Virus record (IMG/VR): IMGVR_UViG_2974624538_000001 | Coordinates: 110,771-128,338 of that record | Direction: 5' to 3' (one strand) | Length of the DNA: 17,568 nucleotides | DNA from: a virus | Taxonomy: Duplodnaviria; Heunggongvirae; Uroviricota; Caudoviricetes | In this document: positions 3,894 to 17,568 of the stretch, piece after piece | Layout: every line of letters starts with the position of its first letter | Position numbering within the stretch: the first letter of the stretch is position 1 | The notes under the pieces: model-generated | The model's input: only the letters and a program-made list of their open reading frames with translations | What the model was told of the DNA's origin: nothing | Database searches by the model: none | Translations under genes and position numbers: made by a program

Positions 3894-3947
3894 GGGAACC
3901 GTTCGAAAGGGGCGGTTCCCAAGCTTCCCTGATATAGGAGAATAAAA

Positions 3948-4253
3948 ATGGAATGGTTTCATTTCAGTCCGTTTGATGTAATCGGTGTGGGCATCATGAT
4001 ATACGGTTTCTGGAAGGCTTTCTATCGTTGTCCAGTGGGAATGAATTCCAGCAGGATTCTCTACTGGTACTGCGCTTGGGCATGGGTTTTCCTTGGCGTG
4101 GTTCGAATTGCTGAGGGACGGTATGCAAACGCTGTTCTTGATGCTGGATTTGCAGCTTATGATTTCTACCGCTGGTGGAATTCTGGTGGTGATGAGGGTG
4201 TGAAGAACTTCCTTCAGAGCCTTGTCATGAAGCCTGCTCATGCTGTAAGGTAG
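3948..4253 (+). CDS. Multi-pass membrane protein, 101 aa
   Basis: AGGAG SD; two to three hydrophobic, aromatic-rich segments. Confidence 0.8.
   Translation: MEWFHFSPFDVIGVGIMIYGFWKAFYRCPVGMNSSRILYWYCAWAWVFLGVVRIAEGRYANAVLDAGFAAYDFYRWWNSGGDEGVKNFLQSLVMKPAHAVR
4222..4251 (+). promoter_or_regulatory. Promoter TTGTCA-18-TAAGGT
   Basis: Same TAAGGTAGTA -10 context as 5851; hairpin element at 4262-4287. Confidence 0.62.
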
Positions 4254-4308
4254 TACCACAAGCGGGGGCGAGAGTCCCCGCAAGCTTCCTCCCTAGACCT
4301 TAAGGAGA

Positions 4309-4767
4309 ATGATGGACCTGTTTAACGCAGAACGTCAAGCAAAGCTGCTCATGGCTGCTCATGGGCTGATTGACAAGGGTTGGCGTTTCGAGTGGGACAA
4401 TGCCGCCCGGCGATTCGGTCAGTGCCGTTATAGCACTAAGACTATTTCGATGTCTCGTCAGTTGACCGTTCAGCGTAGTGCTGACGCTGTTCGCAATACG
4501 ATGCTGCACGAGATTGCTCATGCTCTTACTCCTGGTAGTGGGCATAATGCGGTGTGGCGGGCAAAGGCTATTTCCATTGGTTGTGATGGAAAGCGTTGTT
4601 CGGATGACAAGGTTGAGGTTGATTACAAGTACGTGGCCAAGTGCCCTAACGGGCATGTCTCTAAGAAGTACCTTCGAAAGCCTCGTGCTTCTGCTAGGCC
4701 CCGTTCTTGTGGTACTTGCAGTCCGGTTTACAATGCCAAGTACGCAATTAGGGTGGTGGCTATTTAA
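4309..4767 (+). CDS. SprT-like zinc metalloprotease, ~152 aa
   Basis: RRFGQC, HEIAHAL (HExxH), GHNAVWR and a C-terminal CxxxH...CxxC zinc ribbon; ATG 4312 is better spaced from the SD than 4309. Confidence 0.88.
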   Translation: MMDLFNAERQAKLLMAAHGLIDKGWRFEWDNAARRFGQCRYSTKTISMSRQLTVQRSADAVRNTMLHEIAHALTPGSGHNAVWRAKAISIGCDGKRCSDDKVEVDYKYVAKCPNGHVSKKYLRKPRASARPRSCGTCSPVYNAKYAIRVVAI

Positions 4768-4946
4768 TGAGGGATACTGTCCCTTTCAACATTTACAAGG
4801 AACACGCCAAGATGGGGCATCAGTGGAGAGATAAGACTGATGACAATGAAAGGCGTAATATTGACACAGTTAACAAGAGGCTTTACATTTGCTCTTGTGG
4901 TTGGCTAGGCTGGTTTGCCAAGGCTGACCTAAATACTGTGAATTAA
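4767..4946 (+). CDS. Hypothetical protein, 59 aa, possible Zn-binding (HAKMGH...CSCGW)
   Basis: TAATG coupling to the SprT gene; TAA at 4944 just before the next hairpin element; not in the ORF track. Confidence 0.72.
   Translation: MRDTVPFNIYKEHAKMGHQWRDKTDDNERRNIDTVNKRLYICSCGWLGWFAKADLNTVN
4861..4911 (+). promoter_or_regulatory. Overlapping promoters TTGACA-17-TACATT (4861-4889) and TTTACA-18-TAGGCT (4882-4911)
   Basis: Consensus matches inside the 59-aa gene, upstream of hairpin 4951-4981. Confidence 0.5.
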
Positions 4947-4993
4947 TTCGGGCGGGGAGAGAAAATCTCCCCGCCAAGCTTGCCCCAAGAGGG

Positions 4994-5022
4994 TTGACAG
5001 ATGGGGCCAGGAGGGATAGGGT
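4994..5022 (+). promoter_or_regulatory. Promoter TTGACA-17-TAGGGT, predicted leaderless start at ATG 5029
   Basis: ATG lies 6 nt after the -10; an AGGAGG inside the spacer could serve read-through transcripts. Confidence 0.72.
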
Positions 5023-5028
5023 AACACC

Positions 5029-5259
5029 ATGAGAAACGTTAAGGTGAATGACTTGTTCGCTCCAATCTTCTGGAAGTCTGTAGCAACTCGGCAGGCTAAT
5101 GGAGAGAGGTATGGGCAGGCTGTATTTAACTCTGCCTATGGACTCTTTCCCAACGAAGTTGGCGAGATGGTTGCGACAGAGCTTGACCCGTTCTACAATG
5201 ATAGTGCTGTGAAGCACTTTCTGGCAGCACTGACTAACAAGATTGAGGATGTACAGTGA
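5029..5259 (+). CDS. Hypothetical protein, 76 aa
   Basis: Own promoter; R.GQA.FN...DPFY.D pattern; GTGA overlap with the next gene. Confidence 0.82.
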   Translation: MRNVKVNDLFAPIFWKSVATRQANGERYGQAVFNSAYGLFPNEVGEMVATELDPFYNDSAVKHFLAALTNKIEDVQ

Positions 5260-5615
5260 GTCACTACAAGGAACTGTGTAAGTGTGGTACGATACTCAAG
5301 CAATGTAGGTGTCCAGGACCGAAGGAGATTCGCGTGACTGACAAGTGTGACCACAATTGGGCCAAGGCTCTTGAGGACGAGCTTGATGAGCAGTACGATA
5401 TTGCTGCAAATGCCGGGCGAAATGTTGTTGAGATTGAGCTTCCGGCAACTCGCCATTGGCTTGAGGTTGCTCTGACGAATGTGTATGGCTTTGTCATCAC
5501 CCTTAACATTGCTGACGAAACGGGCGGGTTGATGAAGGATGTTGACCTGTATTCTTGTGTTAAGCGAGAGGACTTGGCTGACACTATTCACAGCCTTTAC
5601 AATTCCTACGAGTGA
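5256..5615 (+). CDS. Hypothetical protein, 119 aa, N-terminal Cys/His cluster
   Basis: GAGGA SD, GTG start; HYKELCKCG...QCRC...CDH. Confidence 0.78.
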   Translation: MSHYKELCKCGTILKQCRCPGPKEIRVTDKCDHNWAKALEDELDEQYDIAANAGRNVVEIELPATRHWLEVALTNVYGFVITLNIADETGGLMKDVDLYSCVKREDLADTIHSLYNSYE

Positions 5616-5621
5616 GGTGTA

Positions 5622-5813
5622 ATGGGAATTAGAAAGTGGACGGACCTAACTCCATCTGAAAAGATGCAGTGGTTCGACAATTCAATAAGGATTCATGAAG
5701 ACCTTCCTATTCAAAAGAAGCGCAAGATTTGGGCGCGGATTGAAAAGGAAAGGAAGAAGGCAGAACAGAGAGCTAGAAGGCGTAAGCCTAAGTGGTGGCA
5801 GCGCAAGAAGTGA
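5622..5813 (+). CDS. Small basic protein, 63 aa
   Basis: GAGGT SD; K/R/W-rich C-terminus. Confidence 0.75.
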   Translation: MGIRKWTDLTPSEKMQWFDNSIRIHEDLPIQKKRKIWARIEKERKKAEQRARRRKPKWWQRKK

Positions 5814-5827
5814 ACGTGTGGGGAAGG

Positions 5828-5856
5828 TTGACAGACCTTCCCCAAGCTTGTAAGGT
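5828..5856 (+). promoter_or_regulatory. Promoter TTGACA-17-TAAGGT with the -35 in the hairpin loop and AAGCTT in the spacer
   Basis: GGGGAAGGT-TGACAG-ACCTTCCCC-AAGCTT-G-TAAGGT. Confidence 0.78.
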
Positions 5857-5878
5857 AGTAGGCAACCAAAGGAGAGAG

Positions 5879-6076
5879 ATGAAGAAGTCAACGCTCTTTA
5901 CGACCGAAGCTGTACTGTCATTCTTTATGTTCTTCCCCAATGCCATTGTGTCTGTTCGATACATGGTTGAAAGGGATGTTGTTGATGCAAGCAGTACCGC
6001 TTTTGCTGGTGTCGGTCTGTTCTTCCTTGTTCTGTTTGGTCTTCTGGCGATTGATGCTAAGAACGCTGGACAGTGA
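5879..6076 (+). CDS. Small two-pass membrane protein, 65 aa (MKKSTLFTTE...)
   Basis: AAAGGAG SD before ATG 5879, within track ORF 5792-6076. Confidence 0.75.
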   Translation: MKKSTLFTTEAVLSFFMFFPNAIVSVRYMVERDVVDASSTAFAGVGLFFLVLFGLLAIDAKNAGQ

Positions 6077-6131
6077 TTTGACAGGCAGGCGAGAGTCTGC
6101 CAAGCTTGTAACACAACGAAGGGATGGCAAT

Positions 6132-6263
6132 ATGAGGATGCTCGGTAAGCGTGGTCAGCCGTTCTGTGGTAGCAAGTGCTGTGGTGAGAAGCGGGCAAAG
6201 AAGGCTCATACCCGCCGCATGAAGCGCAGGGAGCGCGGTTCCCGCGCGTGGCGTAGCTTCTAG
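6132..6263 (+). CDS. Very basic 43-aa peptide with CxxxCC (MRMLGKRGQPFCGSKCCGEKRAKKAHTRRMKRRERGSRAWRSF)
   Basis: Follows hairpin-AAGCTT 6084-6107 and a GAAGGGA SD; 3' part of track ORF 5940-6263. Confidence 0.68.
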   Translation: MRMLGKRGQPFCGSKCCGEKRAKKAHTRRMKRRERGSRAWRSF

Positions 6264-6274
6264 AAAATCGGGGG

Positions 6275-6303
6275 TTGACAGAAAAACCTCCTAGCTGTAA
6301 GGT
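6275..6303 (+). promoter_or_regulatory. Promoter TTGACA-17-TAAGGT driving the non-coding locus
   Basis: Exact -35; the downstream CCAACGCAAG is shared with the promoter at 7120-7148. Confidence 0.8.
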
Positions 6304-6309
6304 AATACC

Positions 6310-6665
6310 AACGCAAGACGGTGAGGGAAGGCGCACTAAGTCTCCCGACCCTCACCAAGCTTGGAACGAAAGTTCCTCCCAAGACGCCTGATGACCCCCG
6401 GATTACGGCTCTTTGTTTCTAGAGCTTAGATGACCGTAACATCGGTTGCAAACGATAAAGGGGTGAGGGGTGCGCTATAGTGAAAATGGCAAACACACTC
6501 GGAAGAGGGGTTCCGGTTCGAATCCGGATAGCGTACTGGTGTGGGATACCATAAAATCCCAATAATCAATAAAATATAGGTCGAATTGCCTCTTGGTAAT
6601 GAGTCCGTGGGTAAGAGTCCGTTGCGAGCGGAACGAATGGCAACCTACTGCGGCTAACCTATATA
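6310..6665 (+). ncRNA. Candidate multi-domain structured non-coding transcript
   Basis: No SD-led + strand ORF for ~390 nt after a strong promoter. Nested stems at 6320-6356, 6363-6376, 6395-6463 and 6574-6663 flank a tRNA-like unit. Confidence 0.55.
6470..6536 (+). tRNA. tRNA-like RNA lacking a normal anticodon arm (pseudo-tRNA, no anticodon)
   Basis: Acceptor (G)TGCGCTA/TAGCGTA(C); U8-A9; D arm GTG-AAAATGGCAAA-CAC; CTC-GGAA-GAG in place of the anticodon arm; T arm TCCGG-TTCGAAT-CCGGA; no encoded CCA. Confidence 0.75.
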
Positions 6666-6693
6666 CAATATCAATCAAACTACAGGGGTTGAA

Positions 6694-6948
6694 ATGTTCA
6701 GAAAGAAGCCTTGGCAAGACACTGACATTACTGGATGGAGATATTCCATCAAGCCTGGTGATAGTAAGAATTCCTGGCGGGTTTGGATTACCGACCCGGA
6801 AGGAAATCAGTACGGAAGTCACTTCGGCCTTCTGAGCTACTGCACGTATAATTCACGAACCCTTGAAAAGGCTGAAGCCAAGGTAGTAGATTCAATTAAG
6901 AAGACTGCGTATGAGCAGACGACGCTTGTTTCCGTAACCATTCTCTGA
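6694..6948 (+). CDS. Hypothetical protein, 84 aa
   Basis: AGGGG SD; compact ORF with plausible composition. Confidence 0.75.
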   Translation: MFRKKPWQDTDITGWRYSIKPGDSKNSWRVWITDPEGNQYGSHFGLLSYCTYNSRTLEKAEAKVVDSIKKTAYEQTTLVSVTIL

Positions 6949-6962
6949 AAGGACTACCAACC

Positions 6963-7145
6963 ATGATGATGATTCCCGCTCCCCGTGTCGAGTCGTTCCC
7001 GTGCCGTGAGACGGGCTGTGATGGCTTCTACGTGCCTTACAGCGATGGTCTGATGGTTTGCTACGACGGACACGTTTCTAGCCTCTCTGTGGACGACGTA
7101 GACCTTCCGGTCGGTGCTCTTGTGCCTGTCCTGGAAGAGTGCTAA
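6963..7145 (+). CDS. Hypothetical protein, 60 aa, possible Zn ribbon (CxxxxC...CxxxH)
   Basis: AAAGGA SD; CRETGC and CYDGH. Confidence 0.72.
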   Translation: MMMIPAPRVESFPCRETGCDGFYVPYSDGLMVCYDGHVSSLSVDDVDLPVGALVPVLEEC

Positions 7146-7148
7146 GGT
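7120..7148 (+). promoter_or_regulatory. Promoter TTGTGC-17-TAAGGT
   Basis: Weak -35, but the -10 and downstream CCAACGCAAG match the promoter at 6275-6303. Confidence 0.55.
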
Positions 7149-7208
7149 TGTTCCAACGCAAGGGGCTGCGGTCGGCCCCTTGCAAGCTTCCCTAAGGATG
7201 GAGTTGTA

Positions 7209-7424
7209 ATGACTGAGCCTTCAGAGAATCGTATCATTACCTTTCTCATTGGACTGGGTTTGCTTATTGCCTCTGTGGCTGTAATCTGGTTCACGGTTTG
7301 GCTGATTATCGATACAGAAAATCAGTGGGAACTGGAGCAAAAGAAGCAGGATGCTTGTCTTAAGACTGGTGGACTGTGGATTGACAATCGGAACACAGAT
7401 GGATATTGTTACCACAACAAGTAA
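7209..7424 (+). CDS. Small single-pass membrane protein with C-terminal Cys pair, 71 aa
   Basis: Transmembrane segment; CLKTGGLWID...GYC. Confidence 0.82.
   Translation: MTEPSENRIITFLIGLGLLIASVAVIWFTVWLIIDTENQWELEQKKQDACLKTGGLWIDNRNTDGYCYHNK
7381..7409 (+). promoter_or_regulatory. Promoter TTGACA-17-TATTGT
   Basis: Exact -35 inside the upstream gene; hairpin element at 7431-7453. Confidence 0.6.
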
Positions 7425-7474
7425 GAAACCGCCCGGCTATGCTGGGCAAGCTTCCCTAACTAAGGAGATTAGGA

Positions 7475-7726
7475 ATGATTGACCCTACGCAATTTGAGCG
7501 CATTGAGGTTCGCTGTGCACGTCGGCATCCTATGGGTGGCGAGTATGGTCCATTTCGTGTAGTTGGAATCACCAATAGTGGAGATTCCATCTTTGAGGGT
7601 GATGGTGATTCTGAAACTGTTCTTTACGAGGACATTCCCACTAAGCAAATTGCCAACAAGGTCCTTGATGTCTACCTGACTGATTATGTCAAGGATAGGT
7701 ATTTCAGTGGATATATGGACTGCTGA
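7475..7726 (+). CDS. Hypothetical protein, 83 aa
   Basis: AAGGAG SD in cassette context. Confidence 0.8.
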   Translation: MIDPTQFERIEVRCARRHPMGGEYGPFRVVGITNSGDSIFEGDGDSETVLYEDIPTKQIANKVLDVYLTDYVKDRYFSGYMDC

Positions 7727-7787
7727 AATCCGGCCGGGCTCGCAATAACCCGGCAAGCTTCCCAACTGTCTAATCAAAGGAAAAATC

Positions 7788-8288
7788 ATGGTTGGAAATG
7801 AAGAGGAAGCTCGTATCATTGCCCTCTGGGAATTCGATGAGGTGGATGAATATGAGTATCAGCCTCCCGATGGGTTTGAGTACATCGGTGAGGGAGCCAG
7901 CAGGATTGCATTCCGTAGTTTTGCTACTGGAGTGGTGTACAAGCGACATTACTACTCAGATGATGACACCAACGAATTCGAATACAAGGCGATTGAGAGG
8001 ATTAAGCAAATCCCTCTCAAGGGCTGGAGAGTTCCAGATGCTACTCTGTATGTGGTTGAAGAGCAGCAAATCATAGCAATGGAATATGTTGAGGGTGGAA
8101 TGGATGTTCACTGTCAGCGTTCCTACTCATTCTGGAACAAGCCGTGTAATTGCGGAAAGCCTCTGGGAACGTGCAGTGCTGAAGCGTGGGAGCAGCCTCA
8201 AGGAAAGTGGCGGGTTTCAGATTTGCATGTAGGCAATATCGTAATTGATGACAATGGAATCAGAGTGCTTATCGACCTAGGCGCTTGA
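7788..8288 (+). CDS. Minimal protein-kinase-like (RIO/APH-type fold) protein, copy 1, 166 aa
   Basis: YIGEGASR loop, VVYK lysine, EYK, IAMEYV hinge, DLHVGN catalytic loop and LIDLG; ends one residue later. Confidence 0.85.
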   Translation: MVGNEEEARIIALWEFDEVDEYEYQPPDGFEYIGEGASRIAFRSFATGVVYKRHYYSDDDTNEFEYKAIERIKQIPLKGWRVPDATLYVVEEQQIIAMEYVEGGMDVHCQRSYSFWNKPCNCGKPLGTCSAEAWEQPQGKWRVSDLHVGNIVIDDNGIRVLIDLGA

Positions 8289-8314
8289 CTCCAACTGCTC
8301 AGTCATGCTAGGCT
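8285..8314 (+). promoter_or_regulatory. Promoter TTGACT-18-TAGGCT overlapping the kinase stop and the hairpin element
   Basis: Consensus-type -10; hairpin 8297-8318 followed by AAGCTT. Confidence 0.72.
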
Positions 8315-8342
8315 GAGCAAGCTTCGGAACAAAGGAGAAAGA

Positions 8343-8483
8343 ATGCCTAAGCGTCAGATGCCCAAGCCTCGTAACCCTCGTATGAACAAGACGATGGAAT
8401 ATCGTAAGGGCTCTGGTGATTTTCCGACAATGAGTAAGCCTCGCTACTCTCGTAAGGTCAAGTACATTCGAAAGGAATCGTAA
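8343..8483 (+). CDS. Very basic 46-aa protein (MPKRQMPKPRNPRMNKTMEYRKGSGDFPTMSKPRYSRKVKYIRKES)
   Basis: AAAGGAG SD; not in the ORF track. Confidence 0.78.
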   Translation: MPKRQMPKPRNPRMNKTMEYRKGSGDFPTMSKPRYSRKVKYIRKES

Positions 8484-8533
8484 TGAACGGTCATTGCTGG
8501 TGTGGTGCTGAGTATCCCTGCCTCAAGCACTGA
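8483..8533 (+). CDS. Candidate 16-aa Cys/His micropeptide (MNGHCWCGAEYPCLKH)
   Basis: TAATG coupling, AAAGGA SD, and it exactly fills the gap to the next promoter. Confidence 0.45.
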   Translation: MNGHCWCGAEYPCLKH

Positions 8534-8536
8534 GGG

Positions 8537-8566
8537 TTGACAGCCTGGAGTCTGGTAGGGTAGGGT
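8537..8566 (+). promoter_or_regulatory. Promoter TTGACA-18-TAGGGT
   Basis: Exact -35; hairpin element at 8579-8610. Confidence 0.72.
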
Positions 8567-8654
8567 TGTAGTCACAAGGGCGGGGGAGGAAAACCAAACC
8601 CGCCAAGCTAGGAGGCACCAACGGGTCCTCCGAAATATTCTAGGGAGAAAAGAT

Positions 8655-9044
8655 ATGCGTAAGCTGCACTTCACTGACCCTGAGCTTAAGAACTTTGCTC
8701 TTCGCGGCACGAATGCAATTCGCGGCGGTATGGAGCTGCTTCATGTGCACATCAAGACTGGTTACAATTCTTTCGGTTCCTTCGCTACTCGAATGGACAG
8801 TCTTACTCAGGCTTATGAGCTTCCGACCCATGTGATTCACAAGATGATTACTGGTGGAGATTCCGAGCGAACGGAAATGCAGTGGGTCTACTTTATCAAC
8901 AAGTACGGGAGTGTCCGCCCCACTTTTCTTGCTGACTCTGGTGTGATTCCTTATGTCGGCTCTGGTGGCTCTGTTCTCAACGACAGCAATTTCCTTCTTG
9001 ACCTTGGTGCCCTTCGTAAGTTCGGCATTGAGGTTGACTACTGA
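8655..9044 (+). CDS. Hypothetical protein, 129 aa
   Basis: AGGGAG SD; cassette context. Confidence 0.8.
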   Translation: MRKLHFTDPELKNFALRGTNAIRGGMELLHVHIKTGYNSFGSFATRMDSLTQAYELPTHVIHKMITGGDSERTEMQWVYFINKYGSVRPTFLADSGVIPYVGSGGSVLNDSNFLLDLGALRKFGIEVDY

Positions 9045-9063
9045 GGTAGTCATGGGCTACAGT
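9034..9063 (+). promoter_or_regulatory. Promoter TTGACT-18-TACAGT overlapping hairpin 9054-9076
   Basis: The -35 is encoded by the last codons (EVDY) of the upstream gene. Confidence 0.55.
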
Positions 9064-9116
9064 AGAAGCGTAGCCCAAGCTTGCAACACCCCATCGTAAA
9101 CCAACACTAAGGATGA

Positions 9117-9521
9117 ATGATGAACAAGGGTCTCAAGGTCGCTGGTCTCGCTGTTGCTGGTGTGGTTGCTCTGACTGCCTGTGAGGGTGGTTCGGGAACC
9201 GTTCACTACAAGAGTGGCAAGGCTGGGACTGTTGTTGGGAAGTCTACCAAGGGTGGAACGTACAAGCTGACCACCAAGAGCGGCGGTAAGAAGAAGACGT
9301 TTGAGGTCTTCTCTTCGGTCTACTTCGACTGTGGAATGTTCAGCTACTACCCCACGTGCGTAAAGTCGCCTAAGCCGGTTTCTACTCCTACCAAGAATGG
9401 CGGGGGTAAGAACACGACTCCCAAGAACAACAAGACTTCCCCCAAGAAGGACACCACCAAGAAGAGCAACGGATTTGGTGGATTCAAGAGTGGCGGATTT
9501 TCTTCCAGCAAGAAGCGGTAA
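9117..9521 (+). CDS. Lipoprotein with low-complexity K/T/P/N/G-rich tail, 134 aa
   Basis: Basic N-terminus, hydrophobic core and lipobox LTA-C; small beta-rich domain, then a disordered basic tail. Confidence 0.85.
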   Translation: MMNKGLKVAGLAVAGVVALTACEGGSGTVHYKSGKAGTVVGKSTKGGTYKLTTKSGGKKKTFEVFSSVYFDCGMFSYYPTCVKSPKPVSTPTKNGGGKNTTPKNNKTSPKKDTTKKSNGFGGFKSGGFSSSKKR

Positions 9522-9569
9522 TCCGGCAAAAAAGTTCCTTATCGTAAAAGAATAATTCATTGAGCAATC

Positions 9570-9599
9570 ATCCCCCTGGCTTCGGCCAGGGGGATTTTT
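9570..9599 (+). terminator. Strong intrinsic terminator
   Basis: ATCCCCCTGGC-TTCG-GCCAGGGGGAT followed by a T-rich tract. Confidence 0.9.
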
Positions 9600-9621
9600 G
9601 TGTTTTCATTTTCAATTTTCA

Positions 9622-9702
9622 AAATTTGTGGCAAAATTTTGAACCATCGTAAAGGGGAATTCTGAAATTTTTGTGGCATTTTTTTCGACCATCGTAAAGG
9701 GG
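9622..9702. repeat. Two imperfect ~45-bp tandem repeats ending in CCATCGTAAAGGGG
   Basis: TTTGTGGCA...CCATCGTAAAGGGG, with cores at 9644-9657 and 9689-9702; ATCGTAAA also occurs at 9093 and 9541. Confidence 0.85.
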
Positions 9703-9762
9703 CTTCTGCCGGAATCGGACATGTCGGGCTCGCCCCGCTTCGCGGGGCTTCGCCCTCCTTTA

Positions 9763-9785
9763 TACCAAATTGTACCAATTTGGTA
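9763..9785. repeat. Perfect 10-bp inverted repeat TACCAAATTG-TAC-CAATTTGGTA
   Basis: Read directly; preceded by a GC hairpin at 9726-9754. Confidence 0.8.
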
Positions 9786-10060
9786 GTGTTTGTCCTGGTA
9801 TGTACCCGAATGTCCGATTTTCCCGAATCTCCAGTCGGCACGGAAGATTTTACCCTCAAGAGGGTTGACTAATTGCCAGGGCATAGAGTACGCGCATGAA
9901 TTCCGGGCCTGCCTGGTTTCGAGCGTCCGGCCGTGCCGTGCCGACACGTCCCGAGCCGACGAGCGACCGGATAGTTTAACCCTAAACTATTAGGCCGGCA
10001 AATCATTTCATTAGCTAACTAAATAGTTAGCCTGCCTAAGCTGTTACAGTCCGGCCGGAA

Positions 10061-10197
10061 GATTGTAGCAATCAATGTAGCAATACAAATGTTGCTACAA
10101 TCTGGGATTGTTGAACGTTCAATAGTCAGAATCTAAGAGGTTGAACGTTCAACGAAAATTTGTGTTGTGGATTGTAGCAATACATAGCGTGCTACAA
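10061..10197. repeat. Array of TGTAGCA inverted repeats flanking two TTGAACGTTCAA palindromes
   Basis: GATTGTAGCAA 10061 and TTGCTACAATC 10092; palindromes at 10111-10122 and 10141-10152; TTGTAGCA 10172 and TGCTACAA 10190. Confidence 0.85.
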
Positions 10198-10239
10198 CGT
10201 CAGTCGGCGGGATTAGTTGAAATCTGTACTTCCACAGGC

Positions 10240-10515
10240 TGTGGATAAATCTGTGGATAAGTTCGTTACTCTGTGCAATGTTACTTCACAGTATGTGAGA
10301 AAAGCTCTGTACGCCTTTCTAAGAGCCTTTCAGCGGGTGGCACGTCCAACCACCCTAGGACACCCGCGAAAGGCCGTTAGACGCGAATTTCACGCTGTGT
10401 AGTATCTGACGGACCGTTGGGAAACCATAGAAAACCGCAGGTCAGACAGCGTTTCGGCATTTATGAAGGGTTGTTGAATAACTCCGCACTGTCACTCTCT
10501 GCTGACTGTGGATAA
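10240..10515 (-). promoter_or_regulatory. Three perfect DnaA boxes (TTATCCACA on the minus strand)
   Basis: TGTGGATAA at 10240-10248, 10252-10260 and 10507-10515. Confidence 0.75.
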
Positions 10516-10718
10516 CTTTTCTTTACCAAGTCTTTACCGAAAAGGGCTTGACAAAGTGACAAAAATTTGCCTACCCAGGGTGGCCGGCCACTTAGGTAAA
10601 ATTTTGGTAACGAATCTCAGAAACGCTTGACAATGAGCCGACCGGAAGCTATTTACGCGCAGCGTGCACGCTCCGGGTGTGATGGGAGCGGCTAGGTTAC
10701 TCGCCGGTTAACTAACTG

Positions 10719-10734
10719 TGTGACGCACGTCACA
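10719..10734. promoter_or_regulatory. Perfect CRP/GlxR-type site TGTGA-N6-TCACA
   Basis: TGTGA-CGCACG-TCACA, within the longer inverted repeat 10718-10735. Confidence 0.6.
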
Positions 10735-10746
10735 CGAACAATGGAC

Positions 10747-10935
10747 TTGCAATCCGGGCCGGTTTCCTGGAGAGTCTTCCTTGTCAGAACGGAACGGCGG
10801 AACGGGAAACCGGGAAGTCGGGAAGGGAAGACAAAGCGGGACCGACTCTGATAGAGTCGGAGACGCACCGGAGGAAAGGCCCGAAAGGGCCGAGTACAAA
10901 GGAATGCGCGGTTGCTTGAGAACTCAATAGTGGAT
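10747..10935 (+). promoter_or_regulatory. rRNA-operon-like promoter and antitermination leader (boxB-like hairpin, boxA/CL2-like motif)
   Basis: CTGATAGAGTCGG (-10 TAGAGT 10852-10857), CCGGAGGAAAG, GGCCC-GAAA-GGGCC, GAGTACAAAGGAA, GTTGCTTGAGAACTCAATAGTG. The order and words match actinobacterial rrn leaders as I recall them; not database-checked. Confidence 0.75.
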
Positions 10936-10941
10936 ACAGAA

Positions 10942-11250
10942 ACACATTACGCACCATAGAGCGCTAAAGCGTCCCTAGTCCGTGAATTCTGCGGGGAATA
11001 CGCCAATACATTGTTAGCGCGAATCGGTATTCTCGGCACTTTGCCAGAATTAGCGAAAAGACATTCTCTCCCTGCGCAGTGTGAGCGCATATCGAATGTG
11101 GCGGATATCCGGGCGGTAGACCGGGTGTGAATATCCAATCCGAGTAGCGAAATTCAGCGGGTGTTTTGTTTATTGGTCAATGGTGTGCCGTGTCCCGATT
11201 ATCTAGGGACTGTGGCTTTAGACGCTTACCCTTTCGAGCGTCTAGTGTCC
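10942..11250 (+). ncRNA. Candidate structured leader/ncRNA
   Basis: No credible ORF; many nested stems, e.g. 10950-57/11180-87, 10985-91/11045-51, 10994-11001/11027-34, 11061-66/11094-99, 11073-77/11085-89 and 11103-08/11131-36. Confidence 0.5.
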
Positions 11251-11282
11251 ACATGTGATTAGGGGAAGAAAGCTGAGGAATC

Positions 11283-11588
11283 ATGACCACTGCCAAGAGC
11301 ACTGCCAAGCGTCCGGCGCGCAAGCCTGCCGAGACTGCCGACAGTGACCCTCAGAACGTCGCAGGATGGACGTTCAAGGCTCCGCGCAAGCCGCGCGGGT
11401 GGAAGAGTGCCGGTACCGTCTCTCTGGCCCGTCAGACGCCGGATGAGCCGTCCGGCGGGTGGCACAAGGTGTGCCGTGCCCTGTGGAACATGGGTGAGGC
11501 GGCCGAAACCGCAACGGGCGGGAATGCGTATTACGCCCGTCGCCGTGACGCGATTGTCTCGCGTCTGGAATCCTTCCTTTCCAAGTAG
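11283..11588 (+). CDS. Hypothetical basic protein, 101 aa; first gene of the second operon
   Basis: GAGGA SD; followed by intergenic hairpins. Confidence 0.78.
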   Translation: MTTAKSTAKRPARKPAETADSDPQNVAGWTFKAPRKPRGWKSAGTVSLARQTPDEPSGGWHKVCRALWNMGEAAETATGGNAYYARRRDAIVSRLESFLSK

Positions 11589-11716
11589 CTAAACCGTCTC
11601 TTCCGGTTTTGGCGCTTATCTCCCGTAGGTAGGCGCACAATGCCGGATTGAGGCAAAGGAAAGTCAACCAACTAAACTCCCCTAATCGCTTGCGGACACT
11701 AGAAAGGAAAAAGGAA

Positions 11717-12115
11717 ATGGACGCAATTACCCGCAAGATTGCTCTTGCCGAGTTGCGGAAGCTGAAAGCGCGGGAAGCGGAATACCGCGCGGAAGTTGAC
11801 GAATGGTACCGGGCGGGGGACGGACGTTCCCCGCGCTGGATTACCCGCCCGAACGGGCGACGCGTCAACGTCGGTGGGAAGGGTTACGCCTTTCCCTACT
11901 GCGAGCATGGTTCTTCCCTGTGGACGGACTATGACAACATTTGCGGCGGGTGTGAGGACGGATATTCCGTTTATCAACTCGCCCTTTGGTCGGCACAGGA
12001 AAAGGTGTCGGAATACAACAAGCGCGCGGATTGGTTGCTTTCCGCTCCGGACGCTTTCCGACACTCGGACATGTACCGGGATTTGATTGATTGGGTGGTC
12101 GCACCTATTCAGTAG
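11717..12115 (+). CDS. Hypothetical protein, 132 aa, with CEHG...DYDNICGGCE metal-binding motif
   Basis: GAAAGGA SD before ATG 11717 (track start 11648 has none). Confidence 0.82.
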   Translation: MDAITRKIALAELRKLKAREAEYRAEVDEWYRAGDGRSPRWITRPNGRRVNVGGKGYAFPYCEHGSSLWTDYDNICGGCEDGYSVYQLALWSAQEKVSEYNKRADWLLSAPDAFRHSDMYRDLIDWVVAPIQ

Positions 12116-12202
12116 TTCAGTCGGTCGGATTGGGGCGGGAAGGGGAAACCCTTCCCGCCACTCTCCCAATCAACTGAAATACAGTTGGTTAGAAAGGCAA
12201 TC

Positions 12203-12397
12203 ATGATTGTTGTTGCATTGCTCGGAGCAATTGCGCTTTGGGTAGGGGCTGCAATGGCGGTTGCCGTTATTCCGGCGTGGCTTGCAATGCTGGCACTCGG
12301 CATGATGGGTCATCCGGTGAGTTTCGCCCTGTGCTTTGTGGTGGGAACGCTTTTGTTTCTGCCTTTCTGTCGGGCGAATGTGACCGTTCGGAACTAA
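12203..12397 (+). CDS. Small membrane protein, 64 aa
   Basis: GAAAGG SD before ATG 12203; almost entirely hydrophobic. Confidence 0.75.
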   Translation: MIVVALLGAIALWVGAAMAVAVIPAWLAMLALGMMGHPVSFALCFVVGTLLFLPFCRANVTVRN

Positions 12398-12489
12398 CGG
12401 TTTGGGGGTCTGCCTTTTCTCCGGAAGGGGGAAAGGCATTCCACCCCAATCCGCTAGACGAAAAGCGGTGTCCTGAAAGGGTAAAACGA

Positions 12490-13209
12490 ATGTCGGAAAA
12501 GCTCGGTTCTCAGAGTGAGGCAGACGAGATTTTCGGTTTCGTGGTCAAGTGGCTTTCCTGGAAGGAAATGGAAAACAACAACTACTATGCCCGGCGCGCG
12601 TTCGAGTGGCACGCGGAAGAAATGGCGGCATGGGAGGATGAGCAAAAGCGCATTGCGGCCGGTGAATATGTTTACTGGCCGATGGAAAAGCCGCACCGTT
12701 TGGTGGTGAGCTACCCCTACGGTCCGAATGTGGAAGAGCCGCAAATGCCGGAAGGGTGGAAGTACCTTGCGGCGGGCGTCTCGCGTCGTGCCTACCTTTC
12801 CCCCACGGGAGTTGTTTACAAGGTTCAGAAGGACCCTGGGAGCGACTATCAGGGGAACAAGGGTGAGCACGAAACGGCGGAGCGCGTGCGGAAGTCTGGC
12901 AGCGTCCGGGGGGCTTACATTCCCCGCACGTCGCTTTACAAGGTTCCGGGGTCATGGGTTATCGCCCTGGAATACATGCCGGGTATTCGCGGTGACCACC
13001 ACTGGGATTCCTGCCGTAGCACTTCCTATTACGGGGAGGACACCGGACGGAAGTGCACTTGCATGTTCCCCGGTGCGGTCCGTTGTTCGGCCCGTATCAA
13101 GTCTGAGTTGCGAAACAAGTTGGGACTTTCCGACTTGCACTCAGAAAACGTTCTGTGGGTTCCCTCTCAGCGCGTTTGGGCGGTAGTCGATTTGGGATTG
13201 GCCAACTAA
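12490..13209 (+). CDS. Minimal protein-kinase-like protein, copy 2, ~239 aa with N-terminal extension
   Basis: YLAAGVSR, VVYK, EHE, IALEYM, DLHSEN and VVDLG; GAAAGGG SD before ATG 12490 (ATG 12568 is an alternative). Confidence 0.85.
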   Translation: MSEKLGSQSEADEIFGFVVKWLSWKEMENNNYYARRAFEWHAEEMAAWEDEQKRIAAGEYVYWPMEKPHRLVVSYPYGPNVEEPQMPEGWKYLAAGVSRRAYLSPTGVVYKVQKDPGSDYQGNKGEHETAERVRKSGSVRGAYIPRTSLYKVPGSWVIALEYMPGIRGDHHWDSCRSTSYYGEDTGRKCTCMFPGAVRCSARIKSELRNKLGLSDLHSENVLWVPSQRVWAVVDLGLAN

Positions 13210-13279
13210 GCCATTCTGTGGCTTTAGGGGTGCTCACTCGAAAGGGTGAGCACACCCTATGGACTCACAGAAAGGATGA

Positions 13280-13744
13280 ATGACAGTGAGTTTCAATCCG
13301 GCTGAGAAAGTCAGTCTGTGGAATTACGCCGTGGAAATCGAGTATTCGGAAGGGACTAACCCTCTCATCCGTTCGGCTTTCTTCGGTACGGCAAAGGATG
13401 CGGCTGCATTCCTTGACGGTTTCGACTACTCGAACGGTGACGTTTTCGGGTGGTCGGGAGATTCCGCAACGCTGGAAGCAATCCAGAGTTACCGAAAGGG
13501 TGACGACGTGCGAGCAATTCCGGAATTCATCACGGAATACGACGTGAACGACGAAACCGATTCGGGCCGTGCAATCGGGGCGGACGAATTCAATCGTCTG
13601 TTTCGGATGTTCCACCGAAAGAACGGTTTCACCGTTCGTCGGTGGGCAGTGCCGGACGGACACGTTTACGCCGTGATGTTCAACGGTGAGTTGTCCGGCG
13701 CAATGTGGCACGTGCCGGAAAGCGCGGATTGCATCATCATGTAA
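13280..13744 (+). CDS. Hypothetical protein, 154 aa
   Basis: GAAAGGA SD; bounded by intergenic hairpins. Confidence 0.82.
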   Translation: MTVSFNPAEKVSLWNYAVEIEYSEGTNPLIRSAFFGTAKDAAAFLDGFDYSNGDVFGWSGDSATLEAIQSYRKGDDVRAIPEFITEYDVNDETDSGRAIGADEFNRLFRMFHRKNGFTVRRWAVPDGHVYAVMFNGELSGAMWHVPESADCIIM

Positions 13745-13832
13745 GAGCCTTTCAGTCTCGATAGGGAAAGGGGGTGGTTACCTTGCGACGTAGGCGCAAG
13801 CGCAAATTACCCAACGACTGAAAGGAAAAGGA

Positions 13833-14069
13833 ATGCGGGAATATCTCGTCTGGAATGAATCCGGCGACTTGCTTTCGGGACCACACCGGAAGCGAGAAAC
13901 GGCGGAAAGGATGGAAGCTAAGTTCATTGCGGAATGTGCGGCGGAATGCGGCACTGACGGAATGGACGAAAACGGAAACGGTAATTTCGCGTGCGGGGTG
14001 CTTTCTCCGCACGGAATCCACATTCAAGTGACGGAAGGTGGATACGACATTACCGGGCACGATTACTGA
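13833..14069 (+). CDS. Hypothetical acidic protein, 78 aa
   Basis: GAAAGGA SD; bounded by hairpins. Confidence 0.78.
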   Translation: MREYLVWNESGDLLSGPHRKRETAERMEAKFIAECAAECGTDGMDENGNGNFACGVLSPHGIHIQVTEGGYDITGHDY

Positions 14070-14150
14070 CGCTAGGGCGTCCGGGCATTCGCAACTGTCG
14101 TTGTGAGTGTCCGAATGTCCTAAGGGTTAGGGCATTGAAAGGGGTATGAC

Positions 14151-14324
14151 ATGCGTACGGTTACGGTTGACGGTCGGTCCGGCATCATCACGGGGCGCGG
14201 CATGGGTCCGAACGATGGCAAGGTGTTCGTTCTGTTCGATGGGGACGACACGGCCGAATCGTCGGCCCGTTGGGTGTCTGTTGAGTCGGTCATGGTGACC
14301 GGAACCCTTCCGGCATCGTTCTAG
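14151..14324 (+). CDS. Hypothetical 57-aa protein, possibly an SH3-like barrel (MRTVTVDGRSGIITGRGMGPNDGKVFVLFDGDDTAESSARWVSVESV...)
   Basis: GAAAGGGG SD; fills the gap between two hairpins; not in the ORF track. Confidence 0.72.
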   Translation: MRTVTVDGRSGIITGRGMGPNDGKVFVLFDGDDTAESSARWVSVESVMVTGTLPASF

Positions 14325-14424
14325 GCCCGTGGGGACCGTTCTAAGCGACTCGGAACGGTCCCCCGGTCCATCGGTCCAACCAACCCACGTTAGGCGCTCA
14401 CAGGGGCGCACAGGAGGTTTCAGG

Positions 14425-14670
14425 GTGTCCAGCACTCCCAACGGTCACGTTGTCCGTTTCGAGATTCCGGGATTCGGAGTGACTAAGTTCCGGCCGGAAG
14501 TATTCGAAAAGCTTTACCGAAAGCTCATGAACAATCCGGTTTCAATGACCGTGGAAAATCTGCGTTTCCACGGTTTCGACCTTGCGGTTATGAATCGACC
14601 GCATGACGAACTGTCCAAGCTCGAATGGATTGCTATTTGGGGCGAATGCTCCGGTAAGGGTTTGGATTGA
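14425..14670 (+). CDS. Hypothetical protein, 81 aa
   Basis: AGGAGG SD before GTG 14425; the track start at 14329 lies in the hairpin. Confidence 0.75.
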   Translation: MSSTPNGHVVRFEIPGFGVTKFRPEVFEKLYRKLMNNPVSMTVENLRFHGFDLAVMNRPHDELSKLEWIAIWGECSGKGLD

Positions 14671-14760
14671 GCGTTTAGCCGCTCTAGTCATTCTCGGGAT
14701 TCCCGAGTTTGGCTAAATCGGCTGAAAGCAAAGCCGAGAATTCCACGAAAGGGAATTACT

Positions 14761-15318
14761 GTGATTGGCAACGCACGTGACGCGGAAATGATTCGCAACT
14801 ACGTTGTTAACTCGCGGATTGTGCGGGAAGAGCGCTCGAATTACGAATGTGGCTATTTCATCGGCCCCGTTCGCAAGCGTCCTTCCCGCCCGGAAGGATG
14901 GAAGCGCGTAGGCGGCGGGTGTTTCCGTTCTGCGTGGCTTTCCCCGGACGGCGTGATTTACAAGGTGGAACACGCTTACGGTGGTTACGGGCAGTCGAAT
15001 TCGGAGGAATACGAAAACGTCGTCCGAATCCTCACGGGGAACAAGTCACACCCTTACGTGTCCATTCCGCGAGTGACCTATTACGCCCTTGACGGGCGGG
15101 GGGTTATCGCAATGGAGTACGTGAACGGGGAAGAGCCCGGATACTGCCACGGGTGCGGAAGTGGTTACCGCCACTGCACCACTAAGGTTCGGGGCAAGTG
15201 CATTAATCAGATTTACGCGGAAATCGAAAAGGAATTCGGCCTTTTCGACATGCATTCCGGAAACATCATGTTCATTCCGGAACAAGAGCGTTTCGTCGTT
15301 ATCGACATTGGCGCTTAG
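14761..15318 (+). CDS. Minimal protein-kinase-like protein, copy 3, 185 aa
   Basis: RVGGGCFR, VIYK, EYE, IAMEYV, DMHSGN and VIDIG; GAAAGGG SD. Confidence 0.85.
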   Translation: MIGNARDAEMIRNYVVNSRIVREERSNYECGYFIGPVRKRPSRPEGWKRVGGGCFRSAWLSPDGVIYKVEHAYGGYGQSNSEEYENVVRILTGNKSHPYVSIPRVTYYALDGRGVIAMEYVNGEEPGYCHGCGSGYRHCTTKVRGKCINQIYAEIEKEFGLFDMHSGNIMFIPEQERFVVIDIGA

Positions 15319-15397
15319 ACGTCTAGTGATTGGCAGGCTTGTTTAGCTGCCTTTCGCTAAATGCCTAAGGGTTAGGCAGGAAAAGGGGAAATGAAGA

Positions 15398-15733
15398 ATG
15401 ACGGTAAAGCTTGGTATGTACGGCAAGGGTCGCACTTCCTGGATTGACTTCCGGGATGTGATTCTGTCGGGTGAGGCTTTCACCATTTCTTCCGGCACGT
15501 TCTACGGCGGTCCGTGCAAGGATGCGTCCCATTTGGAAATGGGACGGATGCCGCAGGATGAGCGGGAAAACTTCCGCGCACTCGGCCCGGAAATCAGTTA
15601 CGTGATTTACAGCTATGCGACTCCGATTGCATGGCACGTGCGCAATGTCGGATGGTTCCGCACGAATGCGGGACACAGCAACACGACAAAGCGTCACATG
15701 GGGAAGCTGTGCGGAATTGAGTTCGTCGGCTAA
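15398..15733 (+). CDS. Conserved-looking phage hypothetical protein, 111 aa (YSYATPIAW...W...SNTTKRH)
   Basis: The motif resembles a family of unknown function common in actinophages (from memory); purine-rich SD. Confidence 0.8.
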   Translation: MTVKLGMYGKGRTSWIDFRDVILSGEAFTISSGTFYGGPCKDASHLEMGRMPQDERENFRALGPEISYVIYSYATPIAWHVRNVGWFRTNAGHSNTTKRHMGKLCGIEFVG

Positions 15734-15822
15734 ACGGTTCGGGTTACGGTATTCCGGGCGGGTGTTCGGAATACCGTTTTCCCAATCCGCTTAGAGTGAG
15801 TGGATTAGAGAGGGATAAAGCT

Positions 15823-16203
15823 ATGGGACACATTTTCGCTTTCATGACCGGGACTGCCGTTTCTCTTGACGGTGGGGAGGATGAGAGGGAAGAGCGTCAC
15901 GGCTGGATTGACAAGGAATGGAGCATGACCGTTCTGCACGAATCCCGGAACGACGTTGCTCCGCTGGTTTCCGTTGACGAGTCGGACACGGAAACTCTCA
16001 CGGATGAAATCCGGGATGTGTTGGGGGATGGTTCCCTGTGGGATGACAACGGGGACGGCTCTTTCTATTCACAGGGTGAGTCCGTGGAAGACGGCTACGC
16101 ATGGACGTACGCCGTGCATTTCAAGCGCAAGGGTGGCGCGTCTGAGGGATTCGCGGAGACGGATTGGCACCCTGAGACGGACGGCGGTATTTCTCTCGTC
16201 TGA
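15823..16203 (+). CDS. Highly acidic hypothetical protein, 126 aa
   Basis: GAGGGA SD before ATG 15823; about 29 D/E versus 8 K/R by hand count. Confidence 0.8.
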   Translation: MGHIFAFMTGTAVSLDGGEDEREERHGWIDKEWSMTVLHESRNDVAPLVSVDESDTETLTDEIRDVLGDGSLWDDNGDGSFYSQGESVEDGYAWTYAVHFKRKGGASEGFAETDWHPETDGGISLV

Positions 16204-16321
16204 GAGGCATACAGCCGCTAGGCAGTAGGTTGGTACATAGGTCGCTACAAAAAGGGCCTGTGTGCCTTCCTACGGCACCCGGAAACCGTTCCGGGTGTCT
16301 GGCCTAGGGAAGGGGTTAAAC

Positions 16322-16738
16322 GTGGCTCTCACGGGCGTACACGCGTGCTCGAACGGCTACCCGCACCGGAACGGGGAGTGTGGTTTCACTCCGCTGTCTG
16401 TGCGGGGGGTGAGTATGTGTCAGTGCGGCGGATATCCGGCGACTACCGTGCAAGGTGACTGCACGGTGTGCGGTGCGGGATATTACGAAACAATGGAAGA
16501 ATACCGGGCCGCTATTCCCCCGGTAGATTCCGGGCGGGTGGAAAAGGAATTCCCCATTACCATTACCGCCTATAGGGGAAACAAGGAAGTAAAGGTAAGC
16601 GGTATTCGGGAAGACTCGGTAAGGGCAAAGGTGGATAGGGACGGTAATTGCAATCTGTCCTTTGAGTTTGCCGATAACCCGGACCGAATCGGTTACCTTC
16701 CTTGCGTGGATTGGTACGAAACCGAATGTGAGTGGTAG
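16322..16738 (+). CDS. Cys-rich hypothetical protein, ~138 aa
   Basis: GGAAGGGG SD before GTG 16322 (ATG 16415 is an alternative); CQCG and CTVC. Confidence 0.72.
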   Translation: MALTGVHACSNGYPHRNGECGFTPLSVRGVSMCQCGGYPATTVQGDCTVCGAGYYETMEEYRAAIPPVDSGRVEKEFPITITAYRGNKEVKVSGIREDSVRAKVDRDGNCNLSFEFADNPDRIGYLPCVDWYETECEW

Positions 16739-16802
16739 AAAAGCACTACACACTAGAGAGAAAGGACAGCCTATCGAATATCGATAGATTGAGAGGGTAA
16801 TA

Positions 16803-16877
16803 GTGCGGCAATTCAAAAGGCCGCATTTAATAGGTAATTCGGCTAAAAAGCCTGCAAATGCAAGGGAAAAGGCATGA
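16803..16877 (+). CDS. Possible 24-aa basic peptide (MRQFKRPHLIGNSAKKPANAREKA)
   Basis: GAGAGGG SD, GTG start, ATGA coupling to the next ORF; the short length makes it uncertain. Confidence 0.35.
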   Translation: MRQFKRPHLIGNSAKKPANAREKA

Positions 16878-16963
16878 AAACGGCTGCATTTCTCGCAATT
16901 CTCGGGGTTTCTCTGTGCATCCTGTATATCAGGGGTGCATATACGGTAATTACAGGAGGGTAG
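16874..16963 (+). CDS. Membrane micropeptide, 29 aa (MKTAAFLAILGVSLCILYIRGAYTVITGG)
   Basis: AAGGGA SD; hydrophobic; its end carries the AGGAGG SD of the next gene. Confidence 0.55.
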   Translation: MKTAAFLAILGVSLCILYIRGAYTVITGG

Positions 16964-16967
16964 ATAT

Positions 16968-17249
16968 ATGGGGTGTGCTATTCAGTGGGTATCAAGGAAG
17001 GGGAATGGGGGTGTTATCTATGGGGGATATGTAGTCAATGACGGTACTCACATTGTCTTTGTGGATACCCGGTCTAAGGGGAATACCCGCCCGCTTTATC
17101 TATATCTAGGTAAGGGGGATGACCTAAAGGGTATGGCTGTATATAGGGAATCGGCATTCATCATGCCGGATGTTCTCTTGAATGCAGCCCAATACAATAC
17201 CCTTGTTGCCTCTATGGATGACAGTAAGACTAGGTCATTCAAAGGGTAA
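16968..17249 (+). CDS. Hypothetical protein, 93 aa
   Basis: AGGAGG SD; locally more AT-rich codon usage. Confidence 0.68.
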   Translation: MGCAIQWVSRKGNGGVIYGGYVVNDGTHIVFVDTRSKGNTRPLYLYLGKGDDLKGMAVYRESAFIMPDVLLNAAQYNTLVASMDDSKTRSFKG

Positions 17250-17442
17250 TGAGTCTGAAGAAAACCCGCGAGAAATCCGGGCAGAAAAGATTCAGCATTA
17301 TGGGGAGGTTGCATCCTTTGCGGGTAGGGGTGTGCTTTTCGTTGGCACAATGGGAATCGCTGCAATTTCGGCAATAGCTATCATCATTGCTGGATTGCTT
17401 TTCATCCTGGGAATTGTGTTCCAAGCTTTCTCGGCATTCTAG
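17218..17442 (+). CDS. Small membrane protein, start uncertain (17182 or 17218)
   Basis: Long C-terminal hydrophobic helix; no clear SD; overlaps the previous ORF. Confidence 0.55.
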   Translation: MTVRLGHSKGNESEENPREIRAEKIQHYGEVASFAGRGVLFVGTMGIAAISAIAIIIAGLLFILGIVFQAFSAF

Positions 17443-17443
17443 A

Positions 17444-17547
17444 GAGGAATTCTTTTAGGGGACCCGGCGATAAATTCAATGGGTCCCCCGGAATTCTTTT
17501 TCAATTGCGAATGCAATTGTTTATGGGCGCACTAATTGCGAATGCAA
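17444..17547. repeat. Inverted repeat (GGGACCC/GGGTCCC flanked by GAATTC) and two copies of AATTGCGAATGCAA
   Basis: 14-mers at 17503-17516 and 17534-17547; the first sits within CAATTGC/GCAATTG. Confidence 0.7.
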
Positions 17548-17568
17548 ATTCGAATTGCCGGCCTATAT

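Follow-up and report, generated by a model that had tools for sequence, protein, structure and literature searches.

A Diverged Homologue of the Streptomyces rrn Promoter–Leader Region Precedes Gene Blocks in Streptomyces Phages

The nutL and nutR sites of phage lambda have the order boxA–spacer–boxB, and boxB binds the phage N protein. In the rrn operons of Escherichia coli, the boxB, boxA, and boxC elements nucleate a termination-resistant complex of NusA, NusB, NusE, and NusG with S4 and SuhB (PMC2724277, PMC3177189, PMC6614797), and boxA binds NusB–NusE (PMC2724277, PMC3177189). The boxC element of Mycobacterium tuberculosis is summarized as binding NusA specifically, with an AUA trinucleotide being critical (PMC2724277, citing Arnvig 2004 and Beuth 2005), and the mycobacterial CL2 motif is a putative BoxA (PMC10218544). 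In Streptomyces coelicolor, all six rrn clusters are targets of the sigma factor HrdB (PMC6344877). A phage precedent is provided by T7, in which, according to the summary in PMC3709561 (citing Savalia 2010), boxA lies behind the early host-RNA-polymerase promoters A0–A3 and has a genetic phenotype.

The window analyzed here (the whole stretch of 17,568 nucleotides) is the right-hand 17.6 kb (positions 110771–128338) of a 128,338-bp phage record, the ends of which are 766-bp direct terminal repeats (right copy, window positions 16803–17568). Across 800 tested bases, the record is 99.5% identical to Streptomyces phage Phredrick, a cluster BK1 siphovirus of the genus Gilsonvirus with the host S. 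griseus, which is reported to be lytic and to have a 765-bp terminal repeat (PMC10793280). Every annotated gene of the window is carried on the + strand. A 1.76-kb gene-free gap (about 9522–11282) is flanked upstream by the orthologue of Phredrick gene 260 and downstream by gene 261 at 11283. Within this gap, positions 10747–10930 are, on firm alignment evidence, homologous to the promoter-proximal segment of Streptomyces rrn operons, though diverged from it (Table 1). The initial annotation had described a phage copy of a host rrn promoter and antitermination leader at 10747–10935; the sequence it quoted is present there, and its extent is right, as the likeness to the host ends at 10930.

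Table 1. Coordinates of the rrn-like module and of the features around it, numbered from the first letter of the window.
Position	Strand	Feature	Basis or remark
9570–9595	+	Intrinsic terminator, 11-bp G+C stem followed by a U tract	Just 3′ of the gene 260 orthologue
10747–10775	+	Upstream putative promoter, TTGCAA-17 nt-GAGAGT (weak −10)	Read from the sequence
10790–10825	+	GA-rich segment, homologous to the transcribed inter-promoter spacer of the host	About 83% identity over 36 nt
10828–10857	+	Proximal promoter, AAGACA-18 nt-extended −10 TG-a-TAGAGT	−10 region identical to host rrn
10863–10865	+	Predicted transcription start, 6–8 nt past the −10	Promoter geometry alone
10868–10876	+	CCGGAGGAA, Shine-Dalgarno-like block	Near-invariant in host and phage (two copies vary)
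10878–10891	+	Hairpin at the boxB position, GGCCC-GAAA-GGGCC	Folds in every copy
10893–10902	+	Conserved block AGTACAAAGG	Alignments of host and phage copies
10910–10922	+	boxA homologue GGTTGCTTGAGAA	11/13 identical to host CGTTCCTTGAGAA
10920–10930	+	GAACTCAATAG, at the position of the M. tuberculosis rrn boxC/NusA-binding stretch	Sequence; contains AUA
10931–11282	+	Conserved, apparently structured 350-nt leader	Alignment across 9 phages
11283–17442	+	Right-end block of about 14 small genes, two of them kinase-like	Enters the 766-bp terminal repeat

The module consists, in order, of two tandem promoter units, CCGGAGGAA, a GNRA-capped hairpin, AGTACAAAGG, boxA, and GAACTCAATAG. In the multiple alignment, the upstream promoter occupies the same position as the upstream tandem rrn promoter of the host, and its CCGGTTTCCTGGA(G/T)AGT block is conserved in relatives. 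The GA-rich segment between the promoters aligns locally with seven hosts at z scores of 4.8–8.9 against 500 shuffles and, being of low complexity, is the weakest part of the homology. The proximal promoter, with its −10 hexamer at 10852–10857 and an extended TG, provides the window's sole exact match to TGATAGAGT, and the TGATAGAGTCGGA −10 region is common to the phage and nearly all host copies. The boxA homologue begins about 46 nt past the predicted start, and the 11-mer GAACTCAATAG that follows is what we take to be the crystallized RNA. Host rrn leaders and phage copies alike show high conservation of CCGGAGGAA, as judged in two alignments (of 19 and 13 rows), and of AGTACAAAGG, with few copies varying. 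A 7-bp inverted repeat, CCGACTC-TGATA-GAGTCGG, is centered on the rrn-like −10 (10842–10860). A 6-bp form of it (CCGACT/AGTCGG) is kept in phages Blueeyedbeauty and Annadreamy despite a different −10 hexamer (TACAGT); the repeat is absent in Faust and partial in hosts, and could be an operator that shuts the promoter off.

Similarity to Streptomyces rrn leaders, on which the initial annotation depended, is significant. In BLAST comparisons with 25 host leaders, positions 10868–10930 align with 86% identity over 64 nt, the −10 region (10847–10867) forms a separate stretch of 19–21 nt with 95–100% identity, and with some hosts a single 172-nt alignment (71%) extends back to 10790; the E values of 1e-12 to 4e-14 refer to this small set of 25 leaders. 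A covariance model finds the module in the window at 10860–10935 with 77.8 bits (E 1e-15). In the multiple alignment, the host layout starts with two tandem units, each containing CTGATAGAGTCGGAA and then a GA-rich transcribed stretch, and continues with CCCGGAGGAAA, a short hairpin, GAGTACAAAGGAA, a variable stretch, and CGTTCCTTGAGAACTCAACAGCG.

The specificity of this arrangement is indicated by a scan of one genome per species from 185,579 prokaryote species with the pattern GAGTACAAAGGAA, 5–25 nt, TTGAGAACTCAA (25 specified bases). It occurs at at least 120 loci, many of them at contig ends; all are from Streptomyces among the matches listed, and the 5′ end of 16S rRNA lies 160–215 nt downstream wherever the sequence continues. 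The Streptomyces leader string given in the initial annotation is the commonest host form, accounting for 92 of 120 among the matches listed. The 17-mer core is present in 6–7 copies in each of three complete Streptomyces genomes (reversed control, 0) and at low copy number in 68 of 81 evenly sampled Actinomycetes genomes, or 64 of 77 when four unpublished genomes (G009, G032, G038, and G045) are left aside. The variant found in the window, CAATAGTG, occurs in some of the sampled Actinomycetes genomes. The same variant lies about 165 nt before 16S rRNA in a mycobacterial-type leader. The motif is accordingly that of rrn leaders, as the initial annotation had claimed.

The phage copies also depart from their host counterparts. 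About 20 nt located just after the host start site are absent in the phage, and the phage leader, unlike that of a host rrn operon, is followed by no rRNA and has no leader–trailer partner. The window contains no rRNA, in line with the initial annotation, and no other Rfam family: none is detected at gathering thresholds, and a search of 9500–11400 at E up to 5 returns chance-level matches only. Since there is no rRNA in the window and open reading frames begin at 11283, the module is a copy of the leader and not an rrn operon. An AAGGAA/TTCCTT helix able to sequester boxA is a feature of the host that is not kept in the phages. This helix was considered as a part of the phage module and dropped, as it is 69% paired with no compensation in the phage copies, in most of which boxA is consequently not enclosed by it. 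Directly after the core, 15 of 16 phage copies have AGTG (TunaTartare, AGCG), whereas AGCG is found in 110 of 110 Streptomyces; all 110 Streptomyces leaders with sequence there have CAGCGTGC, compared with CAGTG in the phages, a form that occurs in other Actinomycetes. The phage copies with AGTG (window equivalent, 10928–10933) come from three unrelated groups, and the shared form may reflect either common descent or exchange, or convergence as release from the constraints on pre-16S RNA favors U.

The module is present once in the 128-kb genome (nhmmer E 8e-17; next best, E 6). It is found at the same place in the related large phages Kenrey, Blueeyedbeauty, Annadreamy, Sham, TunaTartare, Faust, and Beuffert, and in a degenerate form in Wakanda; these eight phages span four genera. 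It is also carried by phage Ibantik and by Likavirus phages of about 50 kb (Hydra, Caliburn, Lannister, Zemlya, Triste, RedBear, and dozens more), and neither Ibantik nor the Likavirus phages share anything else with the source phage. When a host leader was used as the query against 50,697 phage records, 83 records matched, all of them Streptomyces phages; a single mycobacterial-type leader of 201 nt used as the query gave no match among GenBank phages. In IMG/VR, 94 contigs contain the 17-mer followed by AGTG, and 46 of these (47 matches, in many flank-sequence groups) are also detected by a profile of the whole module. For one IMG/VR copy (L182), no phage relative was found in GenBank. The module always lies ahead of genes on the same strand and in no case before 16S rRNA; none of the IMG/VR copies has a 16S rRNA start within 500 nt.

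Location relative to the genome end varies between the groups. The source phage has the module 6.6 kb from its right end, directed outward. The Likavirus copies are directed inward at a distance of about 0.65 kb from the right end, and 90–230 nt separate them from an acetyltransferase gene that is followed by further small genes. The earlier suggestion that the arrangement suits first-injected DNA is unsupported and does not generalize, because both end distance and orientation differ.

An alignment of 19 copies (15 from phages and 4 from hosts) has 26 invariant columns, which cluster in CCGGA, AG.AC.AA, and TTGAGAA.T.AA.AG.G, and the stretches between these blocks diverge freely; the TTGAGAAC..AA.AG.G core is invariant across copies. 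The 3′ half of boxA (TTGAGAA) is unchanged in all 19 copies, and the 5′ half varies among phages. The hairpin is conserved as a structure. Six kinds of stem are found (GCCC/GGGU, GGCCC/GGGCC, CCCG/CGGG, GCCU/AGGU, GGCGGG/CCCGCU, and GGGGGG/UCCCCC), mostly with GNRA loops. In a structure-aware alignment of 39 distinct copies, itself fitted to the model, 97% of hairpin cells pair, changes on both sides occur in three of the four pairs (16 cells), and the covariation score exceeds that of 500 of 500 shuffles and of all slid controls. The promoters differ among lineages, with a separate TTGACA −35 in Likavirus and another promoter unit in Sham and TunaTartare. Compensatory change in the hairpin and invariance of the core argue for selection on the transcribed RNA. 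Hitch-hiking with the promoter is hard to reconcile with these data, because the hairpin and core persist in lineages with diverged or replaced promoters, spacers, and flanks. Likewise, maintenance of the module in several phage lineages argues for its being functional.

For certain phages of the same or a near genus (Stigma, SparkleGoddess, Belfort, Comrade, Karp, Moab, and Patelgo), BLAST matches end before the module. In the two that were inspected, Stigma and Moab, the rrn-like promoter is kept (in Stigma, TTGACA-N18-TAGAGTCGG followed by a GA-rich start), and the hairpin, boxA, and boxC are absent. The first gene of the Moab block has 82% amino-acid identity to the first gene after the module in the window. 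The leader is thus exchangeable rather than obligatory, because Stigma and Moab keep the same operon without hairpin, boxA, and boxC. A different conserved non-coding leader of about 370–400 nt stands in place of the hairpin/boxA leader and the 350-nt RNA in both phages (Stigma, L131 1760–2260; Moab, L132 1880–2400), and the Moab sequence has no match in Rfam.

The 350-nt stretch between the module and the first gene shows compensatory change in 31 of 75 predicted pairs across the nine phages; its single-sequence fold is unexceptional (z −0.8), and it has no match in Rfam. It may be merely a structured 5′ untranslated region. The downstream block is bounded, as the next left-end genes past the terminal repeat lie on the other strand. 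Two of its proteins, encoded at 12490–13209 and 14761–15318, are paralogous and share phrog_28435; the second barely reaches the Pfam cut-off for the ABC1 atypical-kinase family (23.1 versus 22.9 bits).

The block had been described as having no obvious internal TTGACA promoters, and scanning agrees. On the + strand, TTGACA (up to one mismatch)-N16–19-TANNNT occurs 17 times in 1–9.1 kb compared with 0 times after 9063, and TGNTANNNT occurs eight times before about 9.1–9.5 kb, four times in the gene-free gap, and 0 times in 11283–17568, counts that are to be read with the TANNNT rules of these scans in mind, an E. coli-like −10 rule missing the module promoters. The last of the four TGNTANNNT sites in the gap is the rrn-like promoter. 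The left 9 kb (1–9100, + strand) has many promoter-like sites of the form TTGACA-17 nt-TA(A/G)GGT, roughly one per one or two genes, in sharp contrast to the promoter-less right-hand block.

The same initial annotation had the operon full of terminator-like hairpins, which holds in a loose sense, for strong intergenic hairpins. Intergenic gaps fold strongly, with stems of 10–15 bp and z scores of −1.2 to −7.4 against shuffles (10 of 11 at or below −2), but hairpins followed by a U tract are not enriched (12 observed, 9.3 expected in shuffled sequence). A second, degenerate boxA-like copy that had been suggested at 11159–11187 is not supported, as the nhmmer core model gives no match there even at E 100.

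Upstream of the module, the terminator at 9570–9595 is strong and clean, and closes the preceding transcription unit. The gene-free region beyond it contains three exact TGTGGATAA sites (DnaA-box consensus) at 10239–10258 and 10508–10516, two of which are separated by 2 nt, in addition to AT-rich direct repeats (about 9626–9703) and several palindromes (10060–10200), and has the look of an origin or a regulatory region. Among relatives, conservation within the gap is highest at 10500–10675, which is 86% identical even in Moab. The sigma-70 region 2 domain (Sigma70_r2) was not found in the phage genome, and a host-type promoter is therefore expected at the module; a search of the genome for T7-type RNA polymerase was blank, as were its controls.

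On balance, the reading that we consider probable is that the locus is a host-derived rrn promoter–leader module, kept by selection, that loads Nus factors for read-through of the gene block. The module would reproduce the final two of the tandem promoters in a Streptomyces rrn operon, along with a nut-like leader comprising the hairpin, boxA, and the stretch with the NusA site. Transcription by host RNA polymerase carrying HrdB, the principal sigma factor, would start near 10864, and the emerging leader would bind host NusB–NusE at boxA and NusA at GAACUCAAUAG, with NusG also joining. These factors may convert the polymerase into the termination-resistant form of rRNA operons, and the modified enzyme would continue through the 350-nt leader and on to the end of the genome, across a 6.3-kb block rich in hairpins and devoid of recognizable promoters, so that a phage antiterminator could be dispensable. 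In E. coli, NusB contacts the 5′ half of boxA. The variability of this half in several phage copies counts against the reading and suggests that NusA on the 3′ stretch may outweigh NusB–NusE, if Nus factors are recruited there. Further evidence against it comes from Stigma and Moab, which have an operon with the same first gene but neither hairpin nor boxA nor boxC, and from the lack of enrichment of U-tract hairpins downstream. Beyond homology and conservation, this account of the module is what we infer: the start site, Nus binding, and read-through are predicted from sequence features, and antitermination, independence of phage protein, rRNA-level output, and ppGpp sensitivity would follow by analogy with boxA and boxC of E. 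coli and M. tuberculosis.

Part of the evidence suits a promoter-only explanation, in which a strong, growth-linked host rRNA promoter was captured and the leader persists as a 5′ untranslated region that does not influence elongation. Of the matches to the host, that over the −10 region is the best conserved, and in Stigma and Moab the promoter part alone is kept, serving the same operon. Against this, the hairpin covaries and the boxA/boxC core stays invariant even between lineages that differ in promoter, spacers, and flanks through divergence or replacement, and we assign the explanation a small but appreciable probability. At the RNA level, the module could instead have a role other than antitermination, as a 5′ stabilizer or processing signal (for RNase III, E, or J) or as a platform guiding the co-transcriptional folding of the 350-nt RNA, as the rrn complex does for 16S rRNA. 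A conserved, apparently folded RNA does sit in the pre-16S position, the CCGGAGGAA and AGTACAAAGG blocks are kept in phages as in hosts, and the E. coli rrn complex is described in PMC10250234 as an RNA chaperone. However, the Likavirus copies precede a different, shorter leader and then a gene, so that no common downstream RNA accompanies the module, and the single-sequence fold of the 350-nt RNA is not exceptional; such a role seems quite unlikely.

The sequence features expected of antitermination would be the same if an abundant leader RNA acted as a decoy that soaks up NusB–NusE, NusA, or another rrn-leader-binding factor, with the result that host rRNA synthesis falls or polymerase is freed. 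A precedent is the competition of lambda boxA for a host factor (Friedman et al., 1990, as cited in PMC2724277). The module is nevertheless single-copy per genome and always placed in cis, immediately upstream of a same-strand operon, for which reason a role in cis is simpler, and titration is distinctly improbable. An artefact, whether a host–phage assembly chimera, as the initial annotation had envisaged, or chance similarity, has next to no probability, and no evidence in its favor was found. Sixteen phage records that cover at least 80% of the query, from separate isolations and sequencing efforts, have the module in an identical location, and its identity to host copies does not exceed 86%, which together exclude a host–phage chimera; the module also lacks about 20 host nt, and the 25-base pattern is found solely in Streptomyces rrn leaders among the matches listed.

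A wider form of the preferred reading of Nus-factor loading is that phages copy the whole rrn front end, such that the host rRNA transcription complex makes and folds the 350-nt RNA, which would have a role of its own in the pre-16S place, and/or that Nus factors are drained from host rRNA synthesis. This is rather unlikely, but if true it would represent a take-over strategy of general reach, shared by many lineages of actinophages and so far undescribed. Should the leader work as proposed, many Streptomyces phages would obtain long, termination-resistant early transcription of rRNA strength with no antiterminator of their own. To our knowledge, the actinobacterial rrn antitermination complex is poorly characterized, and the module, again if it works as proposed, would be a natural and compact object on which to test it. 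Taken together, the phage copies resemble a mutational scan already carried out by nature, in which the invariant positions and the hairpin conserved only in its pairing mark the features kept by selection. The module could also serve as a portable part for Streptomyces engineering, combining a strong promoter with read-through.

The arrangement had been put forward as undescribed, a claim that needs to be divided. The principle of boxA behind early promoters is in print for T7 (PMC3709561), and for the actinophage module, the literature searched yielded no description of rrn-leader copies in actinophages. The module resembles T7 in that a lytic phage has an rrn-type boxA placed shortly after promoters for the host polymerase, and neither is known to require an N-type protein. 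In the window, boxA is within about 100 nt downstream of host-type promoters and heads a gene block, and relatives are lytic (PMC10793280). The difference is that T7, as described there, has a short boxA and is a proteobacterial phage, whereas here the whole promoter–hairpin–boxA–boxC unit is homologous to the host, occurs in actinophages, and is known from sequence. The lambda nut sites are similar in that a phage RNA with boxA and a hairpin recruits host Nus factors for processive antitermination, as is proposed here, and differ in the order of elements: the hairpin precedes boxA in the module, which has the rrn order hairpin–boxA–boxC. The closest likeness in layout is to the rrn leaders of Streptomyces and other Actinomycetes, which have the same element order, −10 region, and hairpin place, and the TTGAGAACTCAA core of which is identical in the phage. 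The boxA principle was thus already known, and the new part is the wholesale, host-homologous copy of promoter, hairpin, boxA, and boxC in many actinophage lineages.
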